Notes under the pieces: generated by a model | What the model was told of the DNA's origin: nothing | Database searches by the model: none | The model's input: only the letters and a program-made list of their open reading frames with translations | Source: Candidatus Iainarchaeum sp. | Lineage (GTDB): Archaea > B1Sed10-29 > WALL01 | Length of the DNA stretch: 36,339 nt | NCBI GenBank assembly: GCA_021162685.1 | Contig: JAGGYF010000036.1 | Location: forward strand, 1-36,339 | Direction: 5' to 3' | Position numbers and translations under genes: made by a program | Shown here: positions 4,614 through 36,339 of the stretch, one piece after another | Layout: every line of letters starts with the position of its first letter | Position numbering within the stretch: position 1 is the first letter of the stretch

Positions 4614-4738
4614 CTTCCAGCAAATAGTGGGGCTGTGGGGTAGCTGTGCAGCGTCCCTAGGGGAAACCTCTGCGGGTTTCCCCTGGCTACCCTGGGAAGC
4701 CCACCCCTTCCAGCAAACAATGGGGCTGTGGGGTAGCT
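4614..4738. mobile_element. 61-nt hairpin element (4646-4706) flanked by 32-bp direct repeats that include tRNA-Pro nt 1-17
   Basis: 4614-4645 vs 4707-4738 differ at 2 positions; the insert is homologous to 22490-22551. Confidence 0.85.
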
Positions 4739-4830: not shown

Positions 4831-4916
4831 GCAGGGGTTCCAGAGCCTGGTCAAATGGGCAGGACTTAAGATCCTGTGGCTTAGTGCCTACGAGGGTTCG
4901 AATCCCTCCCCCTGCA
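4831..4916 (+). tRNA. tRNA-Leu(TAA)
   Basis: GCAGGGG/CCCCTGC acceptor, CAGGA-CTTAAGA-TCCTG anticodon arm, long variable arm. Confidence 0.97.
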
Positions 4917-5242
4917 CTGACCAAATTACATATGGTCGTTCGTAGTGTGGCATAAAGCCACACTATTAGAAATCATTGAAAGGAAGGGGTGTGGAATCCG
5001 AGGGTACGCAAAGCGAAGCAAGGGAGTATATCCCCATAGTATGCTCTGCGCTTCGCATTGCGCAGGGGGAACCTGGGTTCCCCATAAAGGACGCTCTGAC
5101 CAAATTACATATGGTCGTTCGTAGCGTGGCAGCCTTTTTCCGCTTCAGGCGGAAAAAGCCTGGGGAAAGTATAATCATGTTCGCCCTGCCGGCGAACAAG
5201 GACGCCTTCGGCGTTTTATGCTTACAAAATCACACCATTAGA
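4917..5242. repeat. Composite of small hairpin elements directly after tRNA-Leu: 36-bp direct repeat (4917-4952, 5096-5131), inverted long copy of the tRNA-Pro element (4982-5095), second element (5130-5242)
   Basis: Repeat copies are 35/36 identical; 5130-5213 nearly identical to 36189-36271; many GC-rich stem-loops. Confidence 0.85.
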
Positions 5243-5306
5243 GGAGGGGGCTGCCTCCTAGTGATATCTTTCAGATTCCCGTATATCCTAGTTGAATGGT
5301 GATTTA

Positions 5307-10805: not shown

Positions 10806-10941
10806 GCCGGCGTAGCTCAGCCTGGTTAGGCCATGCGTCGTTGATGAAATCGGCGCAGGGACCAAAGCGCCAGACTCATAGGGATGGCATGAGCCCTCCG
10901 GAGATATCTGGAGGTCGCGGGTTCAAAGCCCGTCGCCGGCA
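10806..10941 (+). tRNA. tRNA-Met(CAT), elongator type, with two introns (10830-10865 in the D-arm; 10881-10905 at 37/38)
   Basis: GCCGGCG/CGCCGGC acceptor; removing both inserts restores the GCTC/GAGC D-stem and CCAGA-CTCATAA-TCTGG. Confidence 0.9.
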
Positions 10942-11029
10942 CTTTTTCTTAGTAATTGCAAGAAAATAGTTAAACTTTGATATGATAATGCCATAAAACT
11001 TATATATGTGAAAATAACATAATATTAAT

Positions 11030-22450: not shown

Positions 22451-22590
22451 AATGTCATTAAAAATATGTTATGGGATCGTGGGGTGGCTGTGCAGCGTCC
22501 CTAGGGGGCTTCGCCCCCTGGCTACCCTGGGAAGCCCACCCCTTCCCTCATAATGTCATCAAAAATATGTTATGGGATCGTGGGGTAGCT
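22451..22590. mobile_element. 62-nt hairpin element (22490-22551) flanked by 39-bp direct repeats that include tRNA-Pro nt 1-17
   Basis: 22451-22489 vs 22552-22590 differ at 2 positions; the insert is homologous to 4646-4706. Confidence 0.85.
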
Positions 22591-22904: not shown

Positions 22905-23034
22905 GCCCCGGTGGTGTAGTTCGGTTTATCATCTGGGACTGTCGTAGCCCTCAAGGGAAGAGGGTAGAGGGAGAAACCGTAGGTGTCTCCTCTGCAGATA
23001 TCCCAGGACTCGGGTTCAAATCCCGGCCGGGGCG
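22905..23034 (+). tRNA. tRNA-Asp(GTC) with a 55-nt intron (22945-22999)
   Basis: GCCCCGG/CCGGGGC acceptor, TGGGA-CTGTCG|A-TCCCA, BHB helix CTGT/GCAG. Confidence 0.92.
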
Positions 23035-23142
23035 CTTTTTTGTGGGGAACCGAGAGGTGCTCATTATAATATCAAATATAAATGCGTAAGCACTTGGAGG
23101 GGGATAGGATGAAAGAAAAGATAATTGCCCCCTTTATAAACC

Positions 23143-36188: not shown

Positions 36189-36299
36189 CAGCCTTTTTCC
36201 GCTTCAGGCGGAAAAAGCCTGGGGAAGTATAACCATGTTCGCCCTGCCGGCGAACAAGGACGCCTTCGGCGCATGCTTAAAAGATCCCACTATTAGAAA
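36189..36299. mobile_element. Second copy of the three-hairpin element found at 5130-5242
   Basis: 83/84-nt core differs by one indel and one substitution; tail ends in CACTATTAGAAA. Confidence 0.85.
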
Positions 36300-36306
36300 A
36301 CCATAA

Positions 36307-36321
36307 GCTGGGGTCGCATAG
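36307..36321 (+). other. Probable tRNA-Ser 5' fragment interrupted by a repeat element
   Basis: GCTGGGGTCGCATAG resembles an archaeal tRNA-Ser 5' end, and tRNA-Ser often follows rps10; it continues into CCCAAATTACATATGGG instead of a D-loop. Confidence 0.5.
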
Positions 36322-36339
36322 GCCCAAATTACATATGGG

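Follow-up and report, generated by a model that had tools for sequence, protein, structure and literature searches.

Prokaryotic repeats of the REP/REPIN type are short, non-coding, multi-copy and hairpin-based. Transposition has been inferred for the tRNA introns of the Thermoproteales, and it is thought to occur at the DNA level (Fujishima et al., 2010, in the summary given by PMC4090602); a 2026 preprint on Asgard tRNA introns states in its abstract that 'how they arrive remains open' (10.64898/2026.10.13.758758). Casposase prefers tRNA 3' ends as targets, with the T-loop as 'leader', according to the passages on target choice in PMC5137440, and the oligonucleotide data excerpted from PMC6614799 give the 3'-terminal five nucleotides (LE5 oligo) as the sole TIR determinant that the enzyme needs. 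The closest published case to the locus described here is the intron transposition inferred for the Thermoproteales, and the closest systems by build are the MITE- and REP-like repeats.

The window, i.e. the whole stretch of 36,339 nucleotides that was analysed, is contig C12 of a genome of 1.11 Mb (G000; 45 contigs, ~40% G+C, 98% complete). The features of its tRNA-Asp gene that enter the argument are these:

22905..23035, + strand: tRNA-Asp(GTC) gene with one canonical intron (ARAGORN -i, introns allowed)
22945..22999, + strand: tRNA-Asp intron, 55 nt, at position 37/38 (ARAGORN, position 41)
22939..22942, + strand: anticodon-loop CUGU, 5' strand of the 4-bp BHB helix (constrained fold)
22947..22965, + strand: intron hairpin 1 (fold)
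22953..22993, + strand: module M (AAGGGAAGAGGGTAGAGGGAGAAACCGTAGGTGTCTCCTCT), 41 nt (module HMM, cross-genome matches, metagenome borders)
22966..22993, + strand: intron hairpin 2, which is the hairpin of M (fold, module HMM, blastn-short)

The gene is not listed by the Rfam tRNA model at gathering score in the window. Its intron occupies the canonical site 37/38, across which intronless orthologues align exactly with the gap. In the constrained fold, the anticodon-loop CUGU pairs with a GCAG at 22994-22997, and this helix is bounded by bulges of 3 nt each at about 22943-22945 and 22998-23000. The 3-4-3 BHB-constrained fold of the anticodon arm comes to -32.2 kcal/mol vs -33.3 kcal/mol for the MFE structure, which is an alternative fold lying 1.1 kcal/mol below the BHB. 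The inner helix h' is absent from the fold; in its place are the two hairpins that had already been proposed in the initial annotation. The first of these straddles the border of the module, with its 5' strand GCCCUC outside M and its loop and 3' strand GAGGGU within it. The genome codes for both the splicing endonuclease EndA (PF01974, E=7.5e-33, in a 171-aa frame) and the RtcB ligase (PF01139, E=7.3e-178). On the folded model, this is an ordinary BHB intron, with its ends fixed by the pairing to the anticodon loop, and it is predicted to be excised. Other intron calls by ARAGORN in the genome include those of tRNA-Tyr (17 nt, in the window), tRNA-Ser (50 nt) and tRNA-His (58 nt), along with a 43-nt call in the tRNA gene at 10806-10942. 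The earlier statement that the length of the tRNA-Asp intron exceeds double that of each of the three others therefore holds against tRNA-Tyr but not against the 43-nt call, and with introns of 50 and 58 nt in the same genome its length is ordinary. A 119-nt tRNA-Glu intron (C30, ARAGORN) has repeats common to other contigs and looks like a mis-call; it was excluded from all statements on introns. The gene at 10806-10942 is 137 nt long, scores 41.7 bits with the Rfam tRNA model and is called Thr(cgt) by ARAGORN, an identity that is uncertain. It has ~20 further extra bases and probably contains two insertions, and there is a TGATGA box in the insert.

The core of the tRNA-Asp intron is the module M, which is made up of a purine-rich head and a hairpin, the latter marked by an A.G mismatch and capped by a GUA triloop. 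When the whole gene was searched against 61 related genomes, matches of 95-100% were recovered to the intron core and not to the exons; these come from G007, G010, G011, G012, G013, G017, G018 and G035, often with several per genome. A module HMM built from 27 copies of other genomes, with G000 not included, matches the intron along model positions 1-41 (E=1.5e-14, 53.6 bits). The next six matches in G000 are hairpins of a local repeat, the Pro element considered below (C32, C25, two on C14, C3 and C24; E=3.8e-4 to 0.1), which cover only model positions 17/18-39 and do so throughout in one relative orientation. Thus, M is present in full in the intron, and no more than half of it is seen in the local elements, namely in six of ~18 copies. 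In four metagenome runs from hydrothermal vents, contigs agree with 22953-22990/22993 and diverge from the window beyond this span, thereby providing an independent border for M, and the flanks of M differ between all the loci examined. M has no match to an Rfam family. Upon its removal, the tRNA-Asp intron is reduced to 9 + 6 = 15 nt, which is what a minimal intron measures, as against the 17 nt of the neighbouring tRNA-Tyr intron. No target duplication flanks M in the tRNA-Asp intron, and hence there is no direct footprint of insertion at that copy.

The genomic settings of M extend well beyond this intron. In other tRNA introns it lies antisense, with the end of the hairpin at the 5' splice site, namely in tRNA-Pro(CGG) of G011 and G012 (two tandem copies in the latter), tRNA-Pro(TGG) of G017, and tRNA-Thr(TGT) and tRNA-Thr(CGT) of G013. 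It is in the sense orientation midway along a 153-nt tRNA-Trp intron in G010, and likewise in the tRNA-Asp intron of G000, where it ends 6 nt from the 3' splice site. Outside introns, M is found in DHVE2-type genomes immediately behind the discriminator base of the genes for tRNA-Leu, Pro, Ile, Val and Trp. It also comes after tRNA-Arg or tRNA-Lys and is then followed by a second copy of the tRNA from T-loop to discriminator, 20-29 nt in length (L042, L064, L069). The duplicated tRNA 3' pieces after M in G017 (L064, L065, L069) end in CCA, and the working tRNA-Lys and tRNA-Arg genes upstream of them are followed by CTA and TTT. The RNase P RNA genes of DHVE2-type genomes (L035, L036, L106, L107) contain an 82-nt insert composed of M and an inverted M-like hairpin, which has the last paired strand on one side and ACAGAAGG on the other and is inverted in its entirety between G062 and G065/G066. 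In G011 and G007 (L040, L033), the RNase P match is weaker and M is found close to its 5' end, by eye in the P3 region, and here too the insert is inverted between the two genomes. The presence of M in both orientations within transcripts argues for events at the DNA level.

Counts of M were obtained with a pattern allowing up to 3 mismatches in 29 nt, for which reversed-pattern controls returned 0 matches. By this measure, M is present in 8 of the 31 genomes of the DPANN class (all four of family f3, both of f5, one of the five of f8, and G000), and in 14 of the 21 genomes of an Aciduliprofundum/DHVE2-type family (that of G061), with 1-5 copies each. None of the five relatives in the same family as G000 has it, and G000 itself has a single copy. 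The M-bearing DHVE2-type set includes G065 and G066, which are single-contig genomes, so that a binning artefact is excluded for these. Between the M of G000 and that of G065, which belong to different phyla, 38 consecutive bases of the 41 nt are identical. An exact 26-mer of M occurs at 13 loci in 11 public records, whose titles mention Micrarchaeota, Nanobdellati, 'archaeon', Aciduliprofundum, DHVE2 group and Thermoplasmata, and at a further 7 metagenome loci. The same 26-mer has 0 matches in viral contigs, and a viral origin of M was set aside on this basis.

On these observations, we favour a reading, with a probability of roughly 0.6, in which M is a non-autonomous hairpin module that acts at the DNA level and is lodged in a spliceable BHB intron. 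We infer that M is mobile at the DNA level and has spread horizontally, and that in the tRNA-Asp gene it inserted into an older mini-intron, of which the 15 nt are what remains when M is taken out. The module would move, or be copied, at the DNA level and would land in or beside stable-RNA genes: in RNase P RNA, in tRNA introns, which it enters either way round, in the 3' flanks of tRNAs, and next to duplicated tRNA 3' ends. It would have spread between lineages, including between DPANN and the DHVE2/Aciduliprofundum-type Thermoplasmatota of hydrothermal vents. A BHB intron would offer it a safe harbour because the splicing endonuclease and RtcB together take out all that the two bulges enclose. 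The Pro-element family would then be a distinct mosaic element with a similar general build, some copies of which, in genomes having both, took over the hairpin of M. In G000, which is 98% complete, there are 0 matches to the Y1 transposase (PF01797), reverse transcriptase (PF00078), tyrosine integrase (PF00589) and Cas1 (PF01867).

A comparison with the known systems sets these properties in context. Like the transposed introns of the Thermoproteales, in the summary given by PMC4090602, M presents a near-identical intron sequence in different tRNAs, with the BHB as the sole requirement at the junction; it differs from those introns, as summarised there, in that the intron core alone is shared rather than the whole intron, and in that M also occurs outside introns, in both orientations and in two phyla. 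With MITEs (PMC11602168) and a MITE-like element of Pyrobaculum that resembles an sRNA (PMC6009581), as characterised in the excerpted descriptions, it has in common that it is short, non-coding, multi-copy and hairpin-built, that target duplications are seen at some copies, and that inverted pairs form long hairpins, as in the RNase P insert. Unlike MITEs, M is without terminal inverted repeats, being one hairpin and a purine-rich head of ~41 nt in all; the duplications are long and variable (10-39 nt), the targets are stable-RNA genes, and no cognate transposase was found in G000. The family 2 casposon of A. boonei, on the relevant sections of PMC5137440 and PMC6614799, resembles M in targeting tRNA 3' ends, in duplicating its target and in coming from the same clade; its end is likewise a palindromic GGGG...CCCC hairpin closing with TCCCC, and a remnant of M abuts its native target. 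However, M is not the TIR of that casposon, it is a single end, its duplications differ in length and position, and Cas1 is mostly absent from M-bearing genomes. Finally, the SSV-type integrative elements that target tRNAs (as covered in PMC4090602) share with M a duplicated tRNA piece bracketing the insert, but here the insert is only tens of bases long, lacks an integrase gene and is the same beside different tRNAs.

What is new here is a defined sub-intron module that lives outside introns as well, long loop-to-end tRNA duplications, the invasion of RNase P RNA by M, and near-identity across two phyla. A search of the literature for M, which covered the 17-mer as text and the tRNA introns of DPANN/Micrarchaeota and had bioRxiv preprint supplements outside its scope, returned nothing. 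M can be traced through several states, namely the introns of five tRNA species or more, in either orientation, tRNA flanks with or without duplicated ends, and RNase P RNA. It is found in two phyla and in two single-contig genomes, of which G065 has the published ends and target of the A. boonei casposon, so that the question of how introns arrive can be put to the test by experiment and with population data. A more far-reaching version, which we offer only tentatively, is that M is an active mini-element that borrows its enzyme and shuttles between DHVE2/Aciduliprofundum-type archaea and co-living DPANN, entering stable-RNA genes at loops and serving as a direct source of new or enlarged tRNA introns, through landing at BHB-bounded sites or creating them. 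If this shuttle were real, the near-identity across phyla would also mark the pairing of host and symbiont at hydrothermal vents, and the A. boonei casposase, for which a biochemical assay exists, would come first among the candidate mobilising enzymes.

The local repeat with which the intron had earlier been grouped is the Pro element, represented in the window by the following copies:

22491..22547, - strand: short form upstream of tRNA-Pro(CGG) (R1, 70 bits)
4648..4712, - strand: short form upstream of tRNA-Pro(TGG) (R1, 73.8 bits)
4975..5096, + strand: long form downstream of tRNA-Leu(TAA)

Here R1 is a covariance model trained on 8 copies of the short form; its searches were made with the filters off. 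The genome has ~18 copies or pieces of the element, in a short form of ~60 nt and a long form of ~120 nt, the latter being the short form with an additional central stem of about 57 nt. Read from GGAAGGGG to GACGCT, the element consists of a 5' stem-loop, an AGGGTA or AGGGTT, a hairpin and a tail. The hairpin, GGGG-loop-CCCC, has several types of loop that are common to the long and short forms, and the tail ends in GGACGCT. Direct repeats of 10-39 nt (threshold at least 10 nt) flank 11 of the 18 local copies; most of them correspond to one end of a neighbouring tRNA, either its initial 17 nt or its final 10-22 nt, with the GACGCT end adjoining the duplicate. For instance, the element at 22491-22547 is flanked by a 39-nt direct repeat that comprises 22 nt of upstream sequence and the first 17 nt of the tRNA, and the tRNA-Pro(TGG) element is flanked by one that is 18 nt or longer and takes in the first 17 nt of its tRNA. 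Among the class genomes, R1 finds the short form in 7 of 31 (four of the five same-family relatives, G000 and two of the four f3 genomes). It gives the long form 25 bits, and the latter has 0 matches among 60 relatives at E<=0.001; we therefore ruled out the long form as a widespread family, since only the short form reaches the relatives. In the window, Rfam models match only tRNAs at gathering score, with nothing credible around the elements at E<=10.

Several observations accompany these elements. At tRNA-Pro(CGG) (22451-22590), it is the truncated tRNA-Pro copy, and not the full gene, that has a strong TATA-like box (TTTTATAC) upstream, and hence the leader of the tRNA-Pro(CGG) transcript may include the element. 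Elsewhere in G000 (C36:32020-32200), a short-form element is situated just behind the start codon of an ORF, and in its flanking duplication, which measures at least 21 nt, the ribosome-binding site and the initial codons recur. The genome has two tRNA-His(gtg) genes, at C26:66178-66309 and C31:16088-16160, of which only one has an intron (the 58-nt one); behind each gene lies a piece of the element that is closed by a copy of the last 10-17 nt of the tRNA. The intron on C26 was entertained as an antisense relative of the local elements, being similar by eye, and was rejected for want of a shared blastn-short segment and for its poor placement by MAFFT. GC-rich repeat units surround the long form (4914-5260) and recur at 36189-36339 of the window: a 35-nt repeat at 4918-4952 and 5097-5131 is found again at other loci, and a unit of ~85 nt is 90-100% identical between 5130-5213 and 36189-36271. 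On C14 the long form occurs in tandem with a period of 169 nt.

That the intron might itself be a compact, deleted member of the Pro-element family, such that the local repeats entered the intron or came from it, was the central claim of the initial annotation. The string quoted for it is indeed present at 22945-22999, and the blocks quoted from the reverse complement of the Pro element (4645-4712) are found there in the same order, with GGAAG, AGGGTAG and a GGG-hairpin-CCC being the ones that keep it. The GGGG-loop-CCCC hairpin preceded by AGGGTAG is present in the tRNA-Asp intron, where nucleotides 29-43 are identical (15/15; blastn-short, E=0.037 each) to the hairpins of two element copies:

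C32:23604-23618: 15/15 match to the intron hairpin (blastn-short)
C25:11769-11783: 15/15 match to the intron hairpin (blastn-short)

The loop of the hairpin is identical to that of the C32 copy, and builds of the type 'AGGGT.. plus GGGG-hairpin' adjoin M elsewhere (L041, L061 and L071, by eye). However, CTGCA does not survive as a block of the family, whose conserved tail is instead GACGCT plus G or C; in the intron, GCAG is the strand that pairs with the anticodon-loop CUGU in the BHB helix. Neither the 5' stem-loop GGGAAG-GGGTGGG-CTTCCC nor the 3' tail (T/A)AGGGACGCT of the family occurs in the intron, which has GGAAG only, with AGGGTAG directly after it, and GTAG is found in just 3 of the 8 aligned short forms. 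Scoring with a covariance model, which had been suggested as a check, returns 7.4 bits for the intron with R1 (E=4.7 in the 36-kb window) vs 70-74 bits for the true copies; this weak match (22956-22995, + strand) has the right span and strand and is the sixth best in the window, but by this model the likeness of the blocks does not exceed chance. The intron is not among the R1 matches in the whole genome at E<=0.001, nor is it listed at E<=100 by two HMMs of the family (nhmmer --max, 1.1-Mb genome). Lacking both ends of the family and recognised neither by its covariance model nor by its HMMs, it was not retained as a member. Further, M is far more widespread than the Pro-element family: it is seen in f3, f5, f8 and the DHVE2-type genomes, vs R1 in 4 of the 5 same-family relatives. 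M-type hairpins occur inside short forms only in the M-holding G000, G007 and G012 and not in G002-G005; the same-family relatives without M have other loops in their short forms. This restriction to M-holding genomes points to exchange and not to a descent of M from the family, and, going by the sequences of a small sample, suggests that hairpin cassettes may be exchanged between co-resident elements. We accordingly regard descent of the intron from the Pro element as unlikely. What stands of the earlier claim is that the intron carries repeat-element sequence and that a link between the repeats and intron content is real; the real finding is the mobile-looking module M and not membership of the Pro-element family. 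The near-identity across phyla could, on the other hand, reflect strong selection on function rather than transfer, with M being a functional motif inherited along with the host genes, e.g. a protein-binding or processing hairpin. The 38/41 nt shared between phyla, the junction that stays constant directly behind the discriminator base in five tRNA genes of DHVE2-type genomes and the retention of M in the RNase P RNA of several genomes would fit such a motif. They have to be set against the occurrence of both orientations of M within transcripts, with the RNase P insert inverted between relatives, its patchy distribution (0/5 same-family relatives), its non-homologous sites in different tRNAs and different RNase P helices, the target duplications beside some copies and the absence of an Rfam family match, in view of which an inherited motif has a small probability in our estimation.

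The remaining alternatives concern the route by which M might move. A casposase-type (Cas1) integrase could mobilise it as a solo end or mini-element, possibly in trans from a DHVE2-type host. G065 (L108, C1:376000-394000) has the published ends of the A. boonei casposon near 380324 and 389399 (LE26r 26/26), along with its 15-bp TSD at tRNA-Pro, the TSD being taken from the target-site description in PMC5137440 and the TIR from the oligonucleotides in the supplement of PMC6614799. The second copy of this TSD is directly adjoined by a reverse-oriented M that is split in its loop by 41 nt including the palindrome named in the corresponding section of PMC5137440, and this M-type trailer begins with the final 10 nt of the TSD. 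The split M lies just outside the casposon's right end, and the native casposon target thus overlaps an M-type tRNA trailer. About half of the 27 M copies end in TCCCC, on a reading by eye, the preferred target of casposase is the tRNA 3' end, and M is commonest in the DHVE2-type family. Nevertheless, M differs from the published TIR (LE26), and the published oligo sequences rule out that it is the casposon TIR; the duplications beside M are 20-29 nt long and begin in the T-loop, vs 15 bp with a start 5 nt ahead of the end of the tRNA; M is one end without an inverted partner, and the G000 copy ends in TCCTC; and Cas1 is absent from G000, being found in just 1 of the 7 M-bearing DPANN genomes and 1 of the 4 M-bearing DHVE2-type MAGs. 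A casposase is consequently quite improbable as the agent. Alternatively, mobility might be at the RNA level, with an excised and circularised M-intron re-inserting into RNA and being copied back into DNA. All the junctions are indeed in tRNA loops (D-loop, anticodon loop and T-loop), and the duplicated tRNA 3' pieces of G017 (L064, L069) carry a CCA that the working genes do not; but this CCA could equally be the encoded end of the original gene, cut off by an insertion after the discriminator. Such a route is very improbable because M is antisense in five tRNA introns and some RNase P genes and there is no reverse transcriptase in G000.

For the DNA-level module, the tRNA-Asp introns of the relatives are instructive. 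The initial annotation had raised the case of an intron that is conserved where the element is missing, but the intron is not conserved: G005 keeps the Pro-Tyr-Asp gene order with an intronless tRNA-Asp, G002 has the same order and is also intronless, and both hold the Pro element. G004, of the same genus as G002 and G005, has an 80-nt tRNA-Asp intron and G009 one of 47 nt; the interiors of both are unrelated to that of G000. The 3' end, TGCAGAT or TGCAGAC, is common to the introns of G000, G004 and G009 and is the strand needed for the BHB helix. Thus, the ends of the intron are constrained while the interiors turn over. An ancestral intron frame for G000 and G004 was considered on the basis of a common 7-mer (AGCCCTC) and set aside as too short to weigh. 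Among metagenome contigs above an 85% likeness threshold, some tRNA-Asp genes skip exactly 22945-22999 and some hold 28 other letters in its place; with 7 differences in 40 exon bases, these contigs probably come from other organisms. The first hairpin of the G004 intron (L010) is a second, unrelated multi-copy module, which is also found in the tRNA-Glu intron and after the tRNA-Val of G004, in G002 and in the tRNA-Ser intron of G001 (L079, L080, L081, L083).
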